Sequence record: PZ445134.1
Source of the DNA: a phage
Direction: 5' to 3' (one strand)
DNA: 64,000 nt
Below, piece after piece: positions 1,317-60,873 of the stretch. Below the pieces are notes generated by a model, which had not been told where the DNA came from, did no database searches, and saw only the letters and a program-made list of their open reading frames with translations. The position numbers and the translations under genes are program-made. Positions within the stretch are counted from its first letter, which is position 1. Each line of letters begins with the position of its first letter.

Positions 1317-1682
1317 TTAGATATCGAATTCGTTAAGAACTACATCAAAGATTGCTTCGAGATGTTCAGGTTTAGCTCGGTTACTCAGGATATGACGAAT
1401 CCAAGTTTTAACCAGAAGTTTACGATTAACACCGTTCCAGCAAGGATGAGTACCTAAATCACGTTGACGGAAATCATCATCTAATGCAATTTTGAAGTTG
1501 GAACCTTCCATCGTGATTGAAACCGTGATGCCATTTTCAAATCGCATATAAACGTAATTAGGAGTCATATACTGCTCAATTTCGCATACTGAACCGTTAT
1601 TATGCTTCCATAAGCAAATTGTATCGATAGAACCAGCAATACCGTTAGAAACATATTTACGTTCGAAGTTGATGTAGTTCAT
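1317..1682 (-). CDS. hypothetical protein, 121 aa
   Basis: Track ORF; GGAG Shine-Dalgarno upstream; early promoter at 1724-1752. Confidence 0.6.
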   Translation of the reverse strand: MNYINFERKYVSNGIAGSIDTICLWKHNNGSVCEIEQYMTPNYVYMRFENGITVSITMEGSNFKIALDDDFRQRDLGTHPCWNGVNRKLLVKTWIRHILSNRAKPEHLEAIFDVVLNEFDI

Positions 1683-1723
1683 TTTATTCTCCAGATGTTT
1701 AAGTTGTTTGTTGGTACAGGTCT

Positions 1724-1752
1724 ATAGTAACACATCCTACAGGAGAGTAAAC
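1724..1752 (-). promoter_or_regulatory. T4-type early promoter
   Basis: minus strand GTTTAC, 17 nt, TTACTAT; precedes SD/ATG of the 121-aa gene. Confidence 0.5.
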
Positions 1753-1788
1753 ATCTTTTTAAACTTTTTCTGCCCTAAACGCACAAAA

Positions 1789-1806
1789 GGGAGACCGAAG
1801 TCTCCC
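1789..1806 (-). terminator. tetraloop hairpin terminator
   Basis: GGGAGACCGAAGTCTCCC perfect 7-bp GC-rich stem, followed by UUUU on the minus transcript. Confidence 0.6.
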
Positions 1807-1811
1807 TAAAA

Positions 1812-1991
1812 TTATGCAACAACCTTTCCAAAACGAGAAGCATCATCTCGAAGAACTGCACGTGCTCTGCGCATGATCTTCTCAACTGTTTGATTAATAC
1901 GAGAGTTCGACCCACGCTTGTATCCAGCGCGTTTAGAGGTACCATCAACTTTCTTTTCTACTGCTTTCTTTGCTTTAGCTTGTTTTGCCAT
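1812..1991 (-). CDS. small basic protein, 59 aa (MAKQAKAKKAVEKK...)
   Basis: Manually translated minus ORF (ATG 1991-1989, TAA 1814-1812), below track size cutoff; hairpin terminator immediately downstream at 1789-1806; weak SD. Confidence 0.4.
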   Translation of the reverse strand: MAKQAKAKKAVEKKVDGTSKRAGYKRGSNSRINQTVEKIMRRARAVLRDDASRFGKVVA

Positions 1992-2260
1992 TATAAATTC
2001 TCTTTAAATGAAAATGCAGGACTTATTGACATTGCCTGCTCAAGCCCTCAAGGGGAACATAGGTTTTGGATATTTAACGACAGGGATAACCATAAACCCG
2101 TCATCATACCGACCACGACTTAGACAGATAACCTTTTTCTGACGCGTGATAGTACAAAATACATTCAAGAGGTACACCGTAAAATTGTCGGGGCGGTACT
2201 TCTAAAACATACCGATTCGCAAATCGATAATCAGACAATTCGACGGCTCCTCGATTTAAC

Positions 2261-2509
2261 TTACTTCAGGGTAATAACAAAATGACGAACTGCTTTACGT
2301 GCTGCAGAAGCCAGAGGCTTAGCATATTTCAATTCATCTTTCTGAACCAGGATATCGCGAAGATCGGCTTGTGCTGGATTCAGATGTTTGAAATACTGTA
2401 AGATTTCAAGAGCTTCGGCTTCAACATCAATAGATGCGCCGTAATTGTCATGGCCATTATTCCATGCATGGCGTTGCAGTTCAAGAGCGTGTTGTAATTG
2501 TTTAATCAT
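2261..2509 (-). CDS. rIII: lysis inhibition accessory protein rIII
   Basis: 82 aa; near-identical over most of its length to my recollection of T4 rIII (MIKQLQHALELQR...KAVRHFV.TLK). Confidence 0.9.
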   Translation of the reverse strand: MIKQLQHALELQRHAWNNGHDNYGASIDVEAEALEILQYFKHLNPAQADLRDILVQKDELKYAKPLASAARKAVRHFVITLK

Positions 2510-2633
2510 TTTAAATTCTCAATTCGAGATAATACTTAGTAGCCACGTTCTTCTGAATTTCACTTTCTTTCGACAAGTCTCTCAGTTGTAGGCTACCGCT
2601 TAGAAGAGTGTTCTCTTCATATAGTTATTTATA

Positions 2634-2966
2634 TCACTTATAAAGACATGGAATAGCTTTATAGTGGCATGTTACGAATTTCTGTTTAATTTCTTTAGGT
2701 TGTTTAAGTCCCAAAGCCACAAATGGATGTGGAACATTTCGAATTTGTCCAACTGGTAGTGGAGTCAAATCACCGACTTCAACAAAACCTTCAGGAACAT
2801 CAGGACCTACAGAATGAACTACACATAGTTCAGGAACTTCACCTTGAACACGTTTACCAATCACAAGTCCTGATTCGGTAACTTCTTCATCACCTGCTTG
2901 AGCTGGTTCAGAAACCAGAATGACATATTCACCAACAGCACGAATTGGGAGTTGTACTTCAGACAT
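2634..2966 (-). CDS. 31: gp31 co-chaperonin (GroES analogue)
   Basis: 110 aa; matches recalled T4 gp31 sequence ([34 protein letters not shown]...). Confidence 0.9.
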
Positions 2967-3023
2967 CTTATTTCCTTGTTGTTTGACGATAGATTAATAA
3001 TACTATACTATTCGTAAAGCATA

Positions 3024-3332
3024 TTACATAAGAAGCAAACGTTCCACCGGAGTACCATCAACCGAAATTACTTTATCAAGGCGGAAAGAACGCCACTGAC
3101 CTAACTTGGTGTCGAATGCTCGAACTGATTCACGAGGTTCATAACGAACTTCTGTTGCCGGATTGTTATTTTCATATTTGACTTCAAGTTCATCGCGCGA
3201 AGCAAACATAGTGCGTACCTCACCGTTAGCCTTTTCAAATACAACACAATGAACGCCTACAGACAGAATAGTTTTAATACGTTCACGAAGAACCATAGTT
3301 TCTTGTTCAGTTAAAATCATATTATTCACCAC
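3024..3332 (-). CDS. hypothetical protein, 102 aa
   Basis: Track ORF between cd and 31 (T4 cd.x position). Confidence 0.55.
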   Translation of the reverse strand: MVNNMILTEQETMVLRERIKTILSVGVHCVVFEKANGEVRTMFASRDELEVKYENNNPATEVRYEPRESVRAFDTKLGQWRSFRLDKVISVDGTPVERLLLM

Positions 3333-3903
3333 AAAAGTTTCGGATTTGTTCCCAATTCAGAGAACGAAGATTATTACGAGAGTACTGAATTACTTCAATA
3401 CCGGCTTGTTTTAGAATGTCTGCCCAATTTTCAGGAGATCTGTCATATAATTCTGCGTATACAACCTTTTTAATACCTGACTGCGTAATAGCTTTAGTGC
3501 AATCAGGACACGGAGAAAGCGTCGTATATAACGTAGCACCTTCAATAGAATTACCTTTACGAGCTGCAAACAAAATTGCGTTCAATTCCGCATGGATTTC
3601 GTTATTAGCAGACCATGCACTATGAGCGGCCCGATGTTCTTTAGCCAAAACAAAATTATCTGCCCGTCCAAATGCTGTAGTGCCTTCTTTATGACCAGCA
3701 ACGATGACCGGGCTTGGTTTATTCTTCAACCAACCGTTTTCGGATGCATGTTCGCAACAGTTTGTACCACCTGAAGGAGAGCCATTATAACCTGTAGAAA
3801 TAATGCGTCCATCTTTTTCAATGACGGCACCAACTTTCCATGAACAACATTTTGATTCTTGAGAAATCAGATATGCAATCTGAAGGTATGTGCTAGCTTT
3901 CAT
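3322..3903 (-). CDS. cd: dCMP deaminase
   Basis: 193 aa, same length as T4 Cd; cytidine/dCMP deaminase zinc motifs HAELNAI and SPCPDC. Confidence 0.9.
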   Translation of the reverse strand: MKASTYLQIAYLISQESKCCSWKVGAVIEKDGRIISTGYNGSPSGGTNCCEHASENGWLKNKPSPVIVAGHKEGTTAFGRADNFVLAKEHRAAHSAWSANNEIHAELNAILFAARKGNSIEGATLYTTLSPCPDCTKAITQSGIKKVVYAELYDRSPENWADILKQAGIEVIQYSRNNLRSLNWEQIRNFCGE

Positions 3904-4895
3904 TATTGAACCTTATTAATATAAGTTAACAGCTCTTTAGTTTGTTCCCAACTGATGCACGCATCGGTAATGGAAACGCCATAGGACATATTATCAGAAA
4001 TTTTTTGATTTCCTTCATGTAGGAATGATTCTATCATAATTCCTTTGACCAAATCATTAGCTGCTAAATTTTTACCAATACCAATTTGATTGCTATAATA
4101 CCCATCAGCGTTTGCATGGCTACAGTCAACCATTACATAATGATTCAGACCTAATGCACTTGCTTTGTTAGAAGCTTCTTGAATATCAGAAGAATGATAG
4201 TTCGGGCCGTTAGTCCCGCCACGCAATACGATATGCGTATTCTGATTACCTTCAGCTTCAACAATGCCTACAGTACCATCGACGTCCATACCCATATACC
4301 GATGAGGCCAGGCGGCACTATACATCGCGTCTGTAGCTACTTTAATAGAACCATTGGTTGCGTTCTTGAAGCCTACGCACATCGGTAGACCTGAAGCAAT
4401 TTCACGATGTGTCTGACTTTCAGTCGTACGGGCGCCAATAGCAACCCATGAGAAAATACCAGAAAGATACTTAATCGTGAATGGGTCTAATACTTCAGTT
4501 GCTAATGGAAGTCCCATACGTAGAAGTTTACGACACAATGTTCGTGCAACTATAAGACCGTGGTTCATATCAAAACTTCCGTCAAGATATGGATCATTTA
4601 CAAGACCTTTCCAACCTACGGTAGTTCGAGGCTTTTCAAAATAAACGCGCATCACTAACAGAACATTAGGAAGACGAGTTTGAAGTTCAGCCAGACGTTT
4701 GCCATATTCAACAGCAGCAATAGGGTCATGAATTGAACAAGGACCTACAACAATAAGTTTGCGTGGGTCTTCACCGTTCATAATCGAATTAACTTGTTCG
4801 CGATGAGAAGCCACTTGTGATGCGTAAGCTTCCGACAAAGGAATAATCTCAGCCAGTTCTTTTGGAGAAATAAGTTTTCTGATGACAGGTAACAT
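3903..4895 (-). CDS. 3-deoxy-7-phosphoheptulonate (DAHP) synthase, class I AroG-type
   Basis: 330 aa; motifs RVYFEKPRTTVGWKGL and GARTTESQTHRE.ASGL are hallmark AroG/AroF segments; AAGGA SD; start/stop overlap with cd. Confidence 0.85.
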   Translation of the reverse strand: MLPVIRKLISPKELAEIIPLSEAYASQVASHREQVNSIMNGEDPRKLIVVGPCSIHDPIAAVEYGKRLAELQTRLPNVLLVMRVYFEKPRTTVGWKGLVNDPYLDGSFDMNHGLIVARTLCRKLLRMGLPLATEVLDPFTIKYLSGIFSWVAIGARTTESQTHREIASGLPMCVGFKNATNGSIKVATDAMYSAAWPHRYMGMDVDGTVGIVEAEGNQNTHIVLRGGTNGPNYHSSDIQEASNKASALGLNHYVMVDCSHANADGYYSNQIGIGKNLAANDLVKGIMIESFLHEGNQKISDNMSYGVSITDACISWEQTKELLTYINKVQ

Positions 4896-5015
4896 AACAA
4901 TCCTTAGGAGATATAAACAGATTCTGATTCAACAATACCTTTAACCGGATTAGACAGGCTAAGTTGGTAGTGCTCAGATTTATGACCATTCTCGATAGTA
5001 ATGAGATAACTCTCA

Positions 5016-56444: not shown

Positions 56445-57104
56445 TTAACCTCGATTCATAAATGCGTTAAATATTTGGTCATCAACAGAAATTTCTAATT
56501 CGACTTCAATTGTTTCAGCCTTTTCTTCAGGTGGTAATTCGTATCCACACACTACAATTTTTTCATCGATATCAAAATATACAGAAGCAATACGATTAAT
56601 GTTACTTTCAGTTAAGTCTAAATCAACATCAACATCTTTTTGACCTACACTTAAAGGATAACTAATACGGGTTATTTTATTATCTTTAACAAAGAGTCCA
56701 CCGACATACTCTGTACTATGTTTGAAGCTTACACGTTTCCGAAATGAAAGATATGATGCATCTTTACCGTGAGCTCGGCTCATAGGACATAATGAATAGC
56801 TAGAATAAGAGATGTCAAATCCTACACCTTCAATATGAGCCAACGCGTCATGATTAAACCAATTATAATCATATGCCAAATCCATTATATTGTAATATGT
56901 GAAAGGCACTGGATTAACATCATACGTTGTACCTTTAAAATCTGCCCAGGCAACGATTTCGTTATCTTTAACAATTACAAAAATTACACCAATATGGTAT
57001 CCGTTATTATTTTCATTCGGCGTTATATTATAACATTGTGCATTAGGAAATTTACCATATTTAAATGGTGCGTTTTTGTGCATGTAATAAATCATATTAT
57101 TCAC
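56445..57104 (-). CDS. hypothetical protein, 219 aa
   Basis: Track ORF. Confidence 0.55.
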   Translation of the reverse strand: MNNMIYYMHKNAPFKYGKFPNAQCYNITPNENNNGYHIGVIFVIVKDNEIVAWADFKGTTYDVNPVPFTYYNIMDLAYDYNWFNHDALAHIEGVGFDISYSSYSLCPMSRAHGKDASYLSFRKRVSFKHSTEYVGGLFVKDNKITRISYPLSVGQKDVDVDLDLTESNINRIASVYFDIDEKIVVCGYELPPEEKAETIEVELEISVDDQIFNAFMNRG

Positions 57105-57390
57105 CTGTGATTTCGGTTACGATATCTTTGTTATCGAAATTAGGGTCACAATACAAAACATAGTTGTACTGCATGATACCGCCAGACTTAAGTTGTCCAA
57201 CAACTTTATTAACCATATTAGGACGGTCTCGTTTAGTGATGTTCATGATATCAGAGAAGATTTGTTGTTCAACATCTTCTTGATTTGCAGTCATTGACCA
57301 CTCACAGAGGTCTTTATCATAACCTGCTGTAACTGGAGCTGGTGCACATGATACTGCAAGTAAGATTGCTGCCAATGATAACTTTTTCAT
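57097..57390 (-). CDS. sp: spackle periplasmic protein Sp
   Basis: 97 aa with signal peptide; matches recalled T4 Sp (AGYDKDLCEWSMTA.Q..VE.QI..DIMNI.KRDRP...SGG.MQYNYVLYCD.NF.NK); promoter 57420-57449. Confidence 0.85.
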   Translation of the reverse strand: MKKLSLAAILLAVSCAPAPVTAGYDKDLCEWSMTANQEDVEQQIFSDIMNITKRDRPNMVNKVVGQLKSGGIMQYNYVLYCDPNFDNKDIVTEITGE

Positions 57391-57419
57391 TTTAACTCCT
57401 TAGTTGATTTGATAGGACT

Positions 57420-57449
57420 ACTATACCATAGTCCATCTATAATGTAAAC
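57420..57449 (-). promoter_or_regulatory. T4-type early promoter (sp)
   Basis: minus strand GTTTAC, 18 nt, TATAGT. Confidence 0.5.
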
Positions 57450-57453
57450 AACT

Positions 57454-57702
57454 TTATTCTTTTTCGCGAATAATAATTACTTGTTGAGGCTGCTGGGCAG
57501 ATTTCTTTTCGGCAACGATAGACCAAATTAAAGTTCCAATCCAACCAATCATCGTCCAGTTAAAGAGTAAAGATATAAAGAAGATTGCTGTTGTGCTTTT
57601 TGTGCCACGAATAAGTGCGATTACCCAAGGCAACATGTAAATGATGATTGAACCAATACCTGCGATTAAAACTGCTACTGAACTAGCTACGAATAATTCC
57701 AT
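57454..57702 (-). CDS. small inner-membrane protein, 82 aa (superinfection-immunity-like?)
   Basis: Two TM segments with LLFNWTMIGWIGTLIWS motif reminiscent of Imm-type proteins; promoter 57731-57760. Confidence 0.5.
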   Translation of the reverse strand: MELFVASSVAVLIAGIGSIIIYMLPWVIALIRGTKSTTAIFFISLLFNWTMIGWIGTLIWSIVAEKKSAQQPQQVIIIREKE

Positions 57703-57730
57703 GTTAATTTCCTCTTGATTTGTTATGTTT

Positions 57731-57760
57731 ATAATATCTTGTTTTAACTTTGGTGTAAAC
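57731..57760 (-). promoter_or_regulatory. T4-type early promoter
   Basis: minus strand GTTTAC, 18 nt, TATTAT. Confidence 0.55.
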
Positions 57761-57763
57761 CAA

Positions 57764-58132
57764 TTAATTAAATTTGTTTAAACGTTCAATACACTGGACG
57801 TAGTTATTTGCGATTTGTTTCTGGGTGGGCTCTTTACCAGTTGTTTCAACATAGCGAATGAATGCGATTTCAGTAGCCTGTAGACAATGTTCTTTAACGC
57901 GTTGTTCTTTTGACAATGCTACAGTATCAGAGTCACGATAACGTTGAGCATGGGCATCAGCTTGAATCATTCGATTACCTACAGTAACCGGGTCTTCCAC
58001 TTCAACTTTAGGTTGGTCATACTGTTTAACATTCGGATTGTAAATCAGTTGGCCAACGTTATTAGGGATAAAGCCATGGGCACCACATCCGGTTAATCCA
58101 AATACCATTGCTAAAGCGATTAATTTTTTCAT
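57764..58132 (-). CDS. putative lipoprotein, 122 aa
   Basis: Signal peptide plus lipobox (MKKLIALAMVFGLTGCGA); promoter 58161-58190. Confidence 0.55.
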   Translation of the reverse strand: MKKLIALAMVFGLTGCGAHGFIPNNVGQLIYNPNVKQYDQPKVEVEDPVTVGNRMIQADAHAQRYRDSDTVALSKEQRVKEHCLQATEIAFIRYVETTGKEPTQKQIANNYVQCIERLNKFN

Positions 58133-58160
58133 TTCAATTTCCTCTGTAGTTGATAGAAAG

Positions 58161-58190
58161 ATAGTAACACAGTATGTGGTGCTTGTAAAC
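58161..58190 (-). promoter_or_regulatory. T4-type early promoter
   Basis: minus strand GTTTAC, 18 nt, TACTAT. Confidence 0.5.
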
Positions 58191-58192
58191 AG

Positions 58193-58405
58193 TTATTTTA
58201 AACTTTTGCGAAATTTGCGTTTTTCTTGACGAATCTGTCGTTTAGTCGGACGTACAGCAAATTTAACGAAGTCCACTTTGCCGTGTGGAAACTTTTCAGA
58301 TGCTTCACAGTCCATCATTAGTTCCCATCCTTCCAGAATAAGAGCTTTCCATTGTGTAGTTGATGCAAATTCGTATGTTGATGGTTTAAACACAGTTGAA
58401 TACAT
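58193..58405 (-). CDS. hypothetical basic protein, 70 aa
   Basis: Track ORF trimmed to ATG 58405 with GAGGA SD, removing a 44-nt overlap. Confidence 0.45.
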   Translation of the reverse strand: MYSTVFKPSTYEFASTTQWKALILEGWELMMDCEASEKFPHGKVDFVKFAVRPTKRQIRQEKRKFRKSLK

Positions 58406-58406
58406 A

Positions 58407-58598
58407 TTATCCTCTGAAATCAGCTTCAAAAACTTTCTCGTCATTAACAAATGCTTTAACTAATGCGTTGTTCACTTCAGCAAGTTGTACCGTAACCCAC
58501 TCGATTTCTTCGCGATCACCTGATAACATAATATCTTTAGTGAACATCTCGCCGCTTTTAAACCAACCTATAAAAGTAACTTTAGTTAATTTGCTCAT
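58407..58598 (-). CDS. hypothetical protein, 63 aa (Dmd-size, coupled to upstream Arr-like ORF)
   Basis: ATG 58598 overlaps stop of the 105-aa ORF (ATGA); size and map position near gene 41 recall T4 dmd, but sequence identity could not be verified. Confidence 0.4.
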   Translation of the reverse strand: MSKLTKVTFIGWFKSGEMFTKDIMLSGDREEIEWVTVQLAEVNNALVKAFVNDEKVFEADFRG

Positions 58599-58912
58599 AT
58601 TTCCTCGCAAAATGCCCATTCAGCGTGATAAACTGTAGCACCTTTAGTATCATTCATTTGAACTACGTCTACCGGAGAAATTACTCGATAGAGACGTGGT
58701 TCACCTCCGTAAGAGCGTGCTGCTCGTCCTGCATAAATCTTTGCTAAACCGATATCTTCAGTAAAGAATACCCGATCCAAGTTTTTCTTACGTCCAGTTT
58801 CAGACAGAACTCCTGTTTCTTCAGGAGGACAAAGCATGTTTTCGATGTTAGCTGAACTACTTGAACCGTGATAAAAAATCTTAAATTCTGCTTTACAATC
58901 AATGGTTTTCAT
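58595..58912 (-). CDS. small H-G-S motif protein, 105 aa; Arr/Tpt1-like ADP-ribosyltransferase fold candidate
   Basis: Motif series FYHGSSSS ... VFFTEDIGLAKIYAG ... YRVISPVDVV resembles the H-G-T/S, beta-strand and Y-x-V-x-P signature of Arr/KptA-clan enzymes; promoter 58939-58967. Confidence 0.4.
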   Translation of the reverse strand: MKTIDCKAEFKIFYHGSSSSANIENMLCPPEETGVLSETGRKKNLDRVFFTEDIGLAKIYAGRAARSYGGEPRLYRVISPVDVVQMNDTKGATVYHAEWAFCEEI

Positions 58913-58938
58913 TTTGTTCTCCAGTAGTTGATAGGTCT

Positions 58939-58967
58939 ATAATAACACAACTACTGGAGAAGTAAAC
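58939..58967 (-). promoter_or_regulatory. T4-type early promoter (Arr-like operon)
   Basis: minus strand GTTTAC, 17 nt, TATTAT, flanked by inverted repeat CTCCAGTAGTTG/CAACTACTGGAG. Confidence 0.55.
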
Positions 58968-59342
58968 TTAAAAACGTAATTTAGATACATCTACGTTGAT
59001 TTCGCTTTGGTTTGCGTCGTATGCAATTAAACGAACAGCTTTAGATGGGTCATTCAATGCATAGAAATGATGGAACATTGCTCGAACGATATCACCATTT
59101 ACGAGTTCTACCTGGATAGGAGAACCTTTTTCGAGTTGGAAATGTTCATAAGCTTTGATGGTTCGCAGATAATCAAGTTTTTGATTTCCGGCTCCAACAA
59201 TTTGTACGATACGTTTGCCCATGTTTTCCATACGAGATACAATAGTTTTAGGAGCAAGAATAACGTAGGTTGCCAGCGGAGAAACTACTTCAACAGTTGT
59301 GTTTTCGGTGATTGCAGTAAAAATTGCTTGAGACATATTCAT
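58968..59342 (-). CDS. hypothetical protein, 124 aa
   Basis: Track ORF; promoter 59372-59401. Confidence 0.5.
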   Translation of the reverse strand: MNMSQAIFTAITENTTVEVVSPLATYVILAPKTIVSRMENMGKRIVQIVGAGNQKLDYLRTIKAYEHFQLEKGSPIQVELVNGDIVRAMFHHFYALNDPSKAVRLIAYDANQSEINVDVSKLRF

Positions 59343-59371: not shown

Positions 59372-59401
59372 ATCATATCATGCCTAGAGGAAGATGTAAA
59401 C
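59372..59401 (-). promoter_or_regulatory. T4-type early promoter
   Basis: minus strand GTTTAC, 18 nt, TATGAT. Confidence 0.5.
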
Positions 59402-59430: not shown

Positions 59431-60873
59431 TTAAAATTTTAACTCATTGGCTAAGCTATCTAGGTCAGCACGTGTTGTTTTGGCTTTACCTACGCGTTCC
59501 GTACGATTCACCTCTGCCTGACGCATCTGGGCACCTGCGTTTTCATTTACTGTGTTAGGTGTGTTCATGCCTTCTTGCTCAATCTCAACCCATTTCTGGT
59601 TGCCTTTACGTACACCCATCAGGAATTTATTCCACTTATTCTTATCACCATACCGTGATTTGATTTGTTTGATAAGTTGTTGTTCAGCTTGTGCAAGTTC
59701 TTCGGTTTCAATTACGGCCAACATGAAATCTGCCGTTGCTGGTAAACCTGCTGATTCTGCAATATCGCTCATGTTCATATCCGAAGCATCCCATGCTGCA
59801 CGTCCTACTTGAGCTGCAGTCCATAGAACTGTTTCAGATTCTACTGCTAATGCACGAAGTTCTTCTGCGATAGCTTTAACTAATGTGTAGCTATTTTCAG
59901 TGTAAACTCTGATACGACAAGACCCACAAATACCTAAGTAATCAACCATGATTACAGATGGCACAAAGTTCTTCTTGAGTTTCAATTCATTAAGCAATGC
60001 ACGGAATGTATTAGCATTAGCTCCGCCAGTAGGATACTGTTTAACTACTAAACGTCCTAATGTTGTTTTTGAACGCCATTTTTCCATCTTGGCTTTATAT
60101 TCAGCATAAGATACGTTACCATCATCGATATCATCGAGCGATACGTCAAGCATGTTTGCATCTATACGCTTAGCACAAACTTCTTCAGCCATTTCCATAG
60201 AAATATAAAGAACGTTATGACCTGTTTGAAGATAATCTGCAGCAAGTGAACAAAGGCCTAAAGATTTACCGACGTTAACACCGGCCATTAAAACATTCAG
60301 TGTACCAGTTTCAGCACCACCTTTAGTGATTTTATTCAGAATGTTTAATTTGAACGGGACCTTACGTGCTTTGTTCAGATAAGAAAGCCAGCGTGCTTCA
60401 TAGTCTTCCATCCAGTCATGTCCAACATAACTATCAAACGAAATTGAAAGTGCTTGACGCATAATATCAGGAATAGCTCCTACGTCAGGCATTTTCTTGT
60501 TACGTTGTTCTGGAGGTAGTTCAGCATTAGACTGAATCTCAATGATTTTAGACGTAGCATTATACATCGCTTTTTGCTGGACATATTTCTCAGTTTCTTT
60601 AACCAACCATTCATGGTCTTCAGGAGTATCAGCCAATTTTTCAATTAGGTCTGAAGTTCCTTTATATTCTGCTTCAGTTAAAGAACTGTTATCTAAAGCC
60701 ACCTTTAATGCATTGATAGACGGCATTGCATTATATTCGTTAACGTGGCTCTTTATAATTTTAAAGACATTTTTTGCCGGTCCACGCTCAAAATACTCAG
60801 AATCCATATAAGGCCAGACCTTAGAAAAATAAGCCTGGTCATATACTAGATGAGACAAAATAATTTCTACCAC
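59431..60873 (-). CDS. 41: replicative DNA helicase gp41 (DnaB family)
   Basis: 480 aa; matches recalled T4 gp41 (MVEIILSHL...LNVLMAGVNVGKSLGLCSLAADYLQ); GTG start with AAGGAG SD. Confidence 0.93.
   Translation of the reverse strand: MVEIILSHLVYDQAYFSKVWPYMDSEYFERGPAKNVFKIIKSHVNEYNAMPSINALKVALDNSSLTEAEYKGTSDLIEKLADTPEDHEWLVKETEKYVQQKAMYNATSKIIEIQSNAELPPEQRNKKMPDVGAIPDIMRQALSISFDSYVGHDWMEDYEARWLSYLNKARKVPFKLNILNKITKGGAETGTLNVLMAGVNVGKSLGLCSLAADYLQTGHNVLYISMEMAEEVCAKRIDANMLDVSLDDIDDGNVSYAEYKAKMEKWRSKTTLGRLVVKQYPTGGANANTFRALLNELKLKKNFVPSVIMVDYLGICGSCRIRVYTENSYTLVKAIAEELRALAVESETVLWTAAQVGRAAWDASDMNMSDIAESAGLPATADFMLAVIETEELAQAEQQLIKQIKSRYGDKNKWNKFLMGVRKGNQKWVEIEQEGMNTPNTVNENAGAQMRQAEVNRTERVGKAKTTRADLDSLANELKF

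Follow-up and report, generated by a model that had tools for sequence, protein, structure and literature searches.

The sequence record PZ445134.1 provided a 64,000-nt stretch of phage DNA (hereafter called the window), which represents an RB69-like Mosigvirus and which at the locus described here shares 98.5% identity with RB69 and 99.2% with phage AV112. The minus strand of this locus carries two overlapping open reading frames (ORFs), of 105 and 63 aa, as well as the promoter that precedes them. The larger ORF (58595..58912, minus strand; the homologue of RB69ORF040c, classified in phrog_2110) is predicted to encode a minimal ADP-ribosyltransferase (ART) related to the rifampin ADP-ribosyltransferase Arr; the smaller one (58407..58598, minus strand, with a Shine-Dalgarno sequence GAGG at 58606..58603) is assigned to dmd, the gene for an antitoxin-like inhibitor of the RNases RnlA and LsoA. 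The first-pass annotation of the locus, made from the sequence alone, had based its assignment of the 105-aa protein on three motifs, all of which are present in the order it gave: FYHGS (residues 13–17), FFTED (within VFFTED, residues 48–53) and YRVxSP (in the form YRVISP, residues 75–80). Its description of the junction between the two ORFs is equally accurate: the start codon of dmd (ATG, 58598..58596) runs into the stop codon of the ART gene (TGA, 58597..58595), and the junction with its ATGA overlap reads ...GAGGAAATATGA. The ORF listing gives a 70-aa version of dmd starting from an upstream in-frame ATG, but the 63-aa version appears preferable, as it agrees with both the RB69 annotation and the Dmd profile.

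The 105-aa ORF is a genuine gene, because its homologues are found in 610 phage records, 25 residues are invariant across 35 members of the family, and the ratio of nonsynonymous to synonymous substitution rates (dN/dS) against its relatives is 0.08–0.10. The records are distributed mainly among phages of Escherichia (216), Klebsiella (116), Acinetobacter (68) and Aeromonas (62), with others from phages of Enterobacter, Cronobacter, Vibrio and further hosts, and the proteins from phages of Escherichia, Klebsiella, Acinetobacter, Aeromonas and Vibrio share 60–70% identity. In many lineages the gene resides in the variable interval between the helicase and primase genes (41–61).

The AlphaFold2 model of the 105-aa protein, built from the alignment of 35 sequences (predicted local distance difference test, pLDDT, 85.7; predicted template-modelling score, pTM, 0.77), is weak only at the N-terminus and in the loop 31–47 and exhibits the split β-sheet fold of the solved ARTs. 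The nearest solved relatives of the model are Tpt1/KptA and Arr, followed by diphtheria toxin, DarT, PARPs and RES toxins; Foldseek ranked Arr first and Tpt1 next, and the BFVD search returned a 94-aa siphovirus protein named 'Ms Rifampin ADP-ribosyl transferase' (template-modelling score 0.75–0.83). At the level of sequence profiles, the first comparison, carried out with the shallow 35-member alignment, gave a probability of 14% for Arr and 0.8% for Tpt1. An exhaustive profile search of 1.84 billion representatives identified 222 relatives of the ART, many of them modules of larger proteins, and 31 of the 51 remote multidomain homologues match the Pfam family Arr-ms (PF12120), with the best E-value of 1.8e-9. 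The diversified profile of 116 diverse members, which includes remote representatives, matched Arr-2/Arr-ms over residues 7–84 with a probability of 96.5% (E-value 8e-10), versus a weak match (probability 16%) to the NAD lobe of Tpt1. By these values the family is related to Arr in sequence, and its likeness to Tpt1 is mainly structural; the 105-aa protein itself is best classified as Arr-related, being predicted to be neither Arr proper nor Tpt1. The membership in the Arr/KptA clan proposed by the first-pass annotation is borne out by the fold, by the nearest solved relatives and by the profile link to Arr, while the sequence link to Tpt1 is weak.

The conservation of the predicted NAD pocket was analyzed in the 116 diverse members. 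H15 and G16 are present in all of them and position 17 is always Ser or Thr, which yields the H-G-[ST] motif of strand 1; E38 and T51 are each retained in 113 members, R41 in 112 and Y60 in 115, position 49 is Phe in 113 and Tyr in the other 3, Arg or Lys occupies position 63 in 97%, and G69-G70 are also conserved. The alignment pairs H15 with H19 of Arr-ms, the segment E38-x-G40-R41 with the E-x-G-R of Arr, and F49 with Y49 of Arr-ms. F49 and Y60 are 11 residues apart, a spacing (with positions set by the alignment, not by coordinates) which we take to be like that of the Y-X10-Y nicotinamide sandwich in the diphtheria-toxin-type ARTs. Between these elements lies the strongly basic loop G-R-K-K-N-L with the two-residue insertion K42-K43 relative to Arr. 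The residues assigned to the NAD pocket are thus conserved in the family. The first-pass annotation had named a non-ART fold and an unconserved NAD pocket as signs that it was mistaken; the fold predicted for the protein is that of the ARTs, and the pocket residues are those listed above.

The differences from the two nearest groups of enzymes are found at the termini. The N-terminal RNA lobe of Tpt1 carries Arg-His-Arg, three of the four catalytic residues of that enzyme. This lobe is wholly absent from the 105-aa protein, in which only 12 residues precede strand 1, compared with ~100 before the HGT motif in KptA and Tpt1. At the C-terminus, only 21 residues follow the aligned core, which ends at residue 84, compared with 61 in Arr-2, and a DPN-like conserved motif was not found in the family after that residue. 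Arr has been defined by the HGT motif, the NAD-bonding Y49 and the catalytic D84 in DPN[VL], and its rifampicin-binding segments in Arr-ms comprise residues 87–95 and 126–133 (PMC6092378, PMC8492726). Compared with Arr (Arr-ms, 2HW2; Arr-2, 9IBA; PF12120), which has ~140–150 aa, the phage protein is shorter, possesses Phe at position 49 and the K42-K43 insertion, and lacks D84/DPN and both rifampicin segments.

Related ART domains occur as modules in proteins of diverse architecture. Two jumbo-phage contigs of 461 kb and 230 kb (L061, positions 1447–3303, and L062) encode a 618-aa fusion of a DnaG-type primase/Toprim region (~290–475) with a C-terminal ART (518–611), and this copy of the ART passes the Pfam Arr-ms threshold. 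The protein P0177 exhibits the same Toprim-then-ART order plus a GNAT domain; GNAT domains accompany the ART module in some multidomain proteins. In the 954-aa protein P0166 a lambda-type portal (94–410) is followed by an Arr-like ART (692–784) and a 2H/Acb1-like phosphoesterase (833–930), a composition that would make it a virion-associated ART with a partner that processes its product or resembles inhibitors of the cyclic-oligonucleotide-based antiphage signaling system (anti-CBASS). A 1955-aa polyvalent-type protein carries the ART domain beside a second ART (ART-PolyVal) and a NUDIX hydrolase. An 850-aa phage protein (L060, positions 2455–5007) with an ART at residues 183–274 shows weak Tpt1- and AcrIF11-like matches in the region ~648–763 and may contain two different ART modules. 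Many metagenomic multidomain proteins that end with the ART (P0132, P0158, P0159, P0167, P0176, P0178 and others) share a short conserved junction motif, approximately G-[TS]-x-G-G-V-x-Y-[FY]-Q-M-G-[GS]-S-L-P-D-x-L-Y-N ... K-K-x-K-R-W-Y-E-K. It connects modules that otherwise have nothing in common, and it has the appearance of a linker, or of a site at which modular (polyvalent or ejected) proteins are processed. Architectures of this kind are typical of effectors that are delivered or expressed at the start of infection. According to PMC9503650, 2H and NUDIX enzymes process the ADP-ribose products of Tpt1-type reactions. These architectures and partners, together with the counter-defence neighbourhood of the gene and the basic loop, would favour an active transferase, possibly one with a phosphate or nucleic-acid acceptor.

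The ART gene is preceded by a T4-type early sigma-70 promoter (58939..58967, minus strand), which consists of the −35 element GTTTAC, a 17-nt spacer with the TG of an extended −10 element, and the −10 element TATTAT. That the gene has its own promoter had been claimed by the first-pass annotation, and the claim is corroborated by comparison with other phages: the strict T4 early-promoter motif (GTTTAC-N15-18-TAnnnT) recurs in 18 of the 56 distinct regions upstream of ART homologues, versus 0.011 expected per 125 nt. A generic sigma-70 scan revealed no enrichment (15 sites versus 12.6 expected in shuffles). In the window the strict motif has 21 copies on the minus strand against 2 on the plus strand, and the minus strand also holds ~87 of the 98 crude gene calls; the window amounts essentially to a single long leftward region of early or middle transcription. 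The next strict motif downstream of 58967 is found only at 58190, with none in between, and for this reason ART, dmd and the following gene, 61.4, are probably cotranscribed as one early transcription unit. A 14-bp hairpin (58917..58961, minus strand) overlaps with the promoter: its 5' arm (58961..58948) is located in the promoter spacer and its 3' arm (58930..58917) includes the Shine-Dalgarno sequence GGAG of the ART gene, so that the spacer sequence UUCUCCAGUAGUUG pairs with the ribosome-binding region CAACUACUGGAGAA. The 81-nt stretch that contains the hairpin (58975..58895) folds at −24.7 kcal/mol (z-score −4.5), and none of 200 shuffled sequences was as stable; pairing of the TCTCC/GGAGA type returns in related loci and phages, with changes of sequence. 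In read-through transcripts from a promoter at 59401 the hairpin would sequester the Shine-Dalgarno sequence, whereas the 5' arm would be missing from transcripts that begin at the promoter of the ART gene itself (predicted +1 near 58932). The arrangement resembles the one known for the T4 genes e, soc, 49 and I-TevI.

Upstream of the ART gene, the interval that separates it from gene 41 (helicase; 60873..59431, minus strand) is occupied by a 124-aa ORF (RB69ORF041c, phrog_10668; 58968..59342, minus strand), whose own promoter motif is the one at 59401. No informative annotation of RB69ORF041c was found in Pfam, NCBIfam or PHROG; the ORF is absent from T6, and a different, 100-aa ORF takes its place in some relatives (L011, L015, L016). 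Together, the ART gene and ORF041c fill the interval between gene 41 and dmd, which is empty in T6; either both were inserted there relative to T6, or T6 lost them. On the other side, the 61.4 homologue (DUF7279; 58193..58405, minus strand) begins 1 nt past the dmd stop codon and is identified by the match to PF23945 (E-value 5e-20) and by the RB69 annotation. The genes that follow on the minus strand are those for the imm.1 lipoprotein (DUF5481), Imm, Spackle and 61.2/AdfA, and the region 3' of dmd (56445–58450, minus strand) forms with 61.4, imm.1, Imm, Spackle and AdfA a compact counter-defence and exclusion cluster, in which AdfA (anti-DarT factor A) was matched with an E-value of 2e-118. 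In T4, Imm adjoins gene 42; in the window it is found instead in this cluster downstream of dmd.

The first-pass annotation had also remarked that the 63-aa ORF is of the size of Dmd and close to gene 41. This ORF matches the Dmd family PF17587 with an E-value of 4e-21 and 75.6 bits (cut-off 27), over positions 3–60 of the 60 in the profile, and phrog_2102 with an E-value of 8e-34; its RB69 counterpart is annotated as dmd. The ORF occupies the syntenic position after gene 41, as in RB69 and T6, and is Dmd itself. Dmd was found in 799 phage records, almost all from phages of Escherichia, Shigella, Yersinia or Salmonella. Among Escherichia phages, 597 records contain Dmd and 216 the ART; T6 has dmd directly after gene 41 and no ART, most Dmd-bearing phages (the Tequatrovirus group) likewise lack the ART, and the ART is present without dmd in phages of Acinetobacter, Aeromonas, Vibrio and Klebsiella. 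Outside the Escherichia-group phages the host-genus distributions of the two proteins barely overlap, and a search with the Dmd hidden Markov model (HMM) detected Dmd within 3 kb of the ART in 10 of 62 IMG/VR loci. Elsewhere the gene downstream of the ART encodes a 55–60-aa membrane peptide (phrog_7619), a Spackle-like protein or unrelated ORFs. The possibility that the 55–60-aa ORFs of the Slopekvirus/RB43-like group are divergent versions of Dmd was considered and rejected, as the Dmd HMM and Pfam searches pointed to phrog_7619 instead, a member of which is annotated as a membrane or signal peptide in Klebsiella phage KLB1. In this Slopekvirus (L066), the ART gene is followed, again with a 4-nt overlap, by the 58-aa phrog_7619 ORF; RNA ligase 2 is encoded five genes downstream of the ART, with an MCP/YpsA-like (SLOG) protein after it, and a zeta-toxin-like gene is found upstream on the opposite strand. 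The ATGA overlap itself is not distinctive in this genome: in a crude gene call of the window, exact 4-nt overlaps were counted in 8 of 85 adjacent same-strand pairs and overlaps of any length in 21, and nearly half of the adjacent gene pairs overlap or abut. As the ART and Dmd occur mostly in different phages, a toxin-antitoxin module is not supported by the distribution, and the two genes seem not to form an obligate pair. Their adjacency is best explained by synteny specific to certain lineages, together with shared early expression, and not by mutual dependence.

The interpretation that we favour, at a probability of about 0.6, is that the 105-aa protein is an early, NAD-dependent minimal ART that serves takeover or counter-defence by acting on a conserved acceptor other than rifamycin. 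In this view, a free-standing minimal ART domain, homologous to that part of Arr which binds NAD, is encoded by the leading gene of a small operon that also contains dmd and 61.4 and is expressed early under the control of a sigma-70-type promoter of its own. The domain would bind NAD+ and transfer ADP-ribose to a non-rifamycin acceptor, the candidates being host macromolecules and nucleic-acid or phosphate groups, and its role would belong to early host takeover or to counter-defence; the adjacency of dmd would result from shared early expression in the variable stretch of counter-defence genes that separates gene 41 from gene 61. Good conservation of the acceptor is to be expected, because the protein retains ~65% identity between phages of Vibrio and those of Acinetobacter. 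A context of conflict with the host is provided in the window by the neighbours Dmd, AdfA, Imm and Spackle. A similar use of host NAD+ is made by Alt, ModA and ModB of T4, which are also early-acting ARTs of T4-type phages engaged in takeover. These three are enzymes of the R-S-E clade with ~200–680 aa (PMC9503650), whereas the protein described here is a ~100-aa H-G-S domain of the Arr type with no detected sequence relation to them, in agreement with the first-pass suggestion of an ART-like protein beyond ModA and ModB. It also differs from the phage anti-CRISPR ART AcrIF11 in host range and genomic context, and the NCBIfam model for the latter (NF052490) gave no match.

Several observations weigh against this interpretation. 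The single sequence of the window protein produced nothing meaningful against Pfam (E-value up to 10), NCBIfam or the sequences of the PDB; it stays below the thresholds of all Arr models (PF12120, NF033144), without any match at an E-value of 10 or better. Where Arr has its NAD-bonding Tyr, 97% of the members carry Phe, and on that account the protein could bind NAD+ without transferring ADP-ribose. The catalytic residue of the H-Y-E enzymes and of Arr (D84) lies in the C-terminal third; in the H-Y-E and R-S-E clades it is a Glu, Asp or Gln of strand 5. No family-wide conserved acidic or amide residue was found after residue 84 in the 116 members; E103, considered as a candidate for the catalytic residue, is invariant only in the close relatives and is not kept in the wider family. 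The acceptor is proposed only from the genomic context and the fusions, and literature searches for experimental work on this ART found none. The missing catalytic Glu may leave room for a pure binding role, but it is not a bar to activity, because Tpt1 and related enzymes catalyse the transfer without one. The gene, its fold and homology, the conserved pocket, the promoter and the distribution are results of the analysis; catalysis, the kind of acceptor and the biological role are inferences drawn from them.

The alternative explanations differ from the favoured one in activity, substrate or partner. A non-catalytic binder with the ART fold, which would either sequester NAD+ or an ADP-ribose-derived immune signal in the manner of a sponge or decoy, or serve as a regulatory subunit, would be in keeping with the very small size of the protein (105 aa), its counter-defence neighbourhood, the Phe in place of the NAD-bonding Tyr and the lack of a family-wide catalytic Glu, Asp or Gln. 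We consider it rather unlikely, given the Glu-independent transfer by Tpt1 and its relatives, the near-invariance of H-G-[ST], E38, R41 and Y60 in over 100 divergent members, some of them modules of polyvalent proteins rich in enzymes, and the adjacent NUDIX and 2H modules, which point to the formation and subsequent processing of ADP-ribose products. If the chemistry were instead that of Tpt1/KptA, with transfer to RNA or DNA phosphates (removal of 2'-phosphates or capping of 5'-phosphates) in the repair or protection of nucleic acids, the closeness of the solved structures would be accounted for, but the RNA-binding lobe, and with it three of the four catalytic residues, is missing (strand 1 has just 12 residues ahead of it) and the profile match to the C-terminal lobe of Tpt1 is weak. 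The T4-type Pnk/Rnl1 repair pathway is not known to produce a 2'-phosphate, which also argues against such a role, and we regard it as quite improbable. Least credible of all is a genuine Arr, by which rifamycin-type antibiotics would be inactivated so as to keep the host RNA polymerase available to the phage: the sequence homology and the name 'rifampin ADP-ribosyl transferase' in some GenBank records point in this direction, but the alignment ends at residue 84, with 21 residues left versus 61 in Arr-2, and neither D84/DPN nor the rifampicin sites 87–95 and 126–133 have a counterpart in the phage protein. More speculative than the favoured interpretation, but not implausible, is a generalization of it, in which the Arr-type module of ~100 residues would represent a widespread class of phage counter-defence or takeover enzymes that ADP-ribosylate non-protein acceptors, for instance the ends of nucleic acids, primers or a nucleotide that serves as an immune signal, by Glu-independent chemistry as in Tpt1 and Arr. 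This would explain the recurring fusions to primase/Toprim, 2H/Acb1-like and NUDIX modules, the presence in ejected polyvalent and portal-fused proteins, and the unusual strength of conservation across Straboviridae.

The remaining alternative, a phage-borne type II toxin-antitoxin-like module with the ART as the toxin and Dmd as its cognate antitoxin, is the one closest to the published view and to the effector/partner or toxin/antitoxin reading of the first-pass annotation. Iyer, Burroughs, Anantharaman and Aravind (2022; PMC9503650) described a 'p0068-family' ART paired with Dmd in phages of Escherichia, Shigella and Salmonella and interpreted the pair as a toxin-antitoxin system with a possible RNA target. 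The arrangement is the same as in the window and almost certainly concerns this locus, so that the pairing reported here was apparently predicted by these authors; the equation with p0068 is unconfirmed and rests only on the described pairing with Dmd, since the locus tags of Aeromonas phage 25 did not match 'p0068' and a text search for this tag was uninformative. Besides the ATGA overlap and the shared promoter, a toxin-antitoxin relationship would agree with the proven role of Dmd as a protein antitoxin against host RnlA/LsoA (cited in PMC9503650). In addition, the same paper reports that in some Klebsiella phages Dmd has another neighbour of this kind, a Mod-like ART unrelated to the first. 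Such an association would have arisen by convergence, and it remains the one argument for a functional link between the ART and Dmd. The distribution data argue the other way: the ART (610 records) and Dmd (799) differ in host range, also among Escherichia phages (216 versus 597), T6 has dmd without the ART, only 10 of 62 IMG/VR loci have Dmd near the ART, the gene downstream of the ART varies by lineage, and 4-nt overlaps are common in the window. The toxin-antitoxin module is consequently regarded as unlikely.

The prediction of an ART at this locus holds but is not new, as it had already been made in silico. Several GenBank records name the gene 'ADP-ribosyl transferase' or 'rifampin ADP-ribosyl transferase'. 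The label 'ADP-ribosyl transferase' in phage HX01 (RefSeq NC_018855; L002) is not independent evidence, because the product names of neighbouring genes look unreliable: this record names the 70-aa homologue of 61.4 'DNA polymerase' and lists the imm.1 lipoprotein as 'iduronate sulfatase'. Two over-readings are corrected by our analysis, namely that the gene is not one for rifampicin resistance, despite its names in GenBank, and that the pairing with Dmd is not good evidence for a toxin-antitoxin system.

Few viruses have been studied as thoroughly as the T4-type phages, whose Alt, ModA and ModB proteins are textbook tools of host takeover. The family described here adds a fourth, unrelated and very strongly conserved predicted ART, which hundreds of Straboviridae possess but T4 itself lacks. 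Knowledge of its acceptor could bring to light a new reaction of host takeover or anti-defence, and could show what the Arr fold did before its recruitment to antibiotic resistance.

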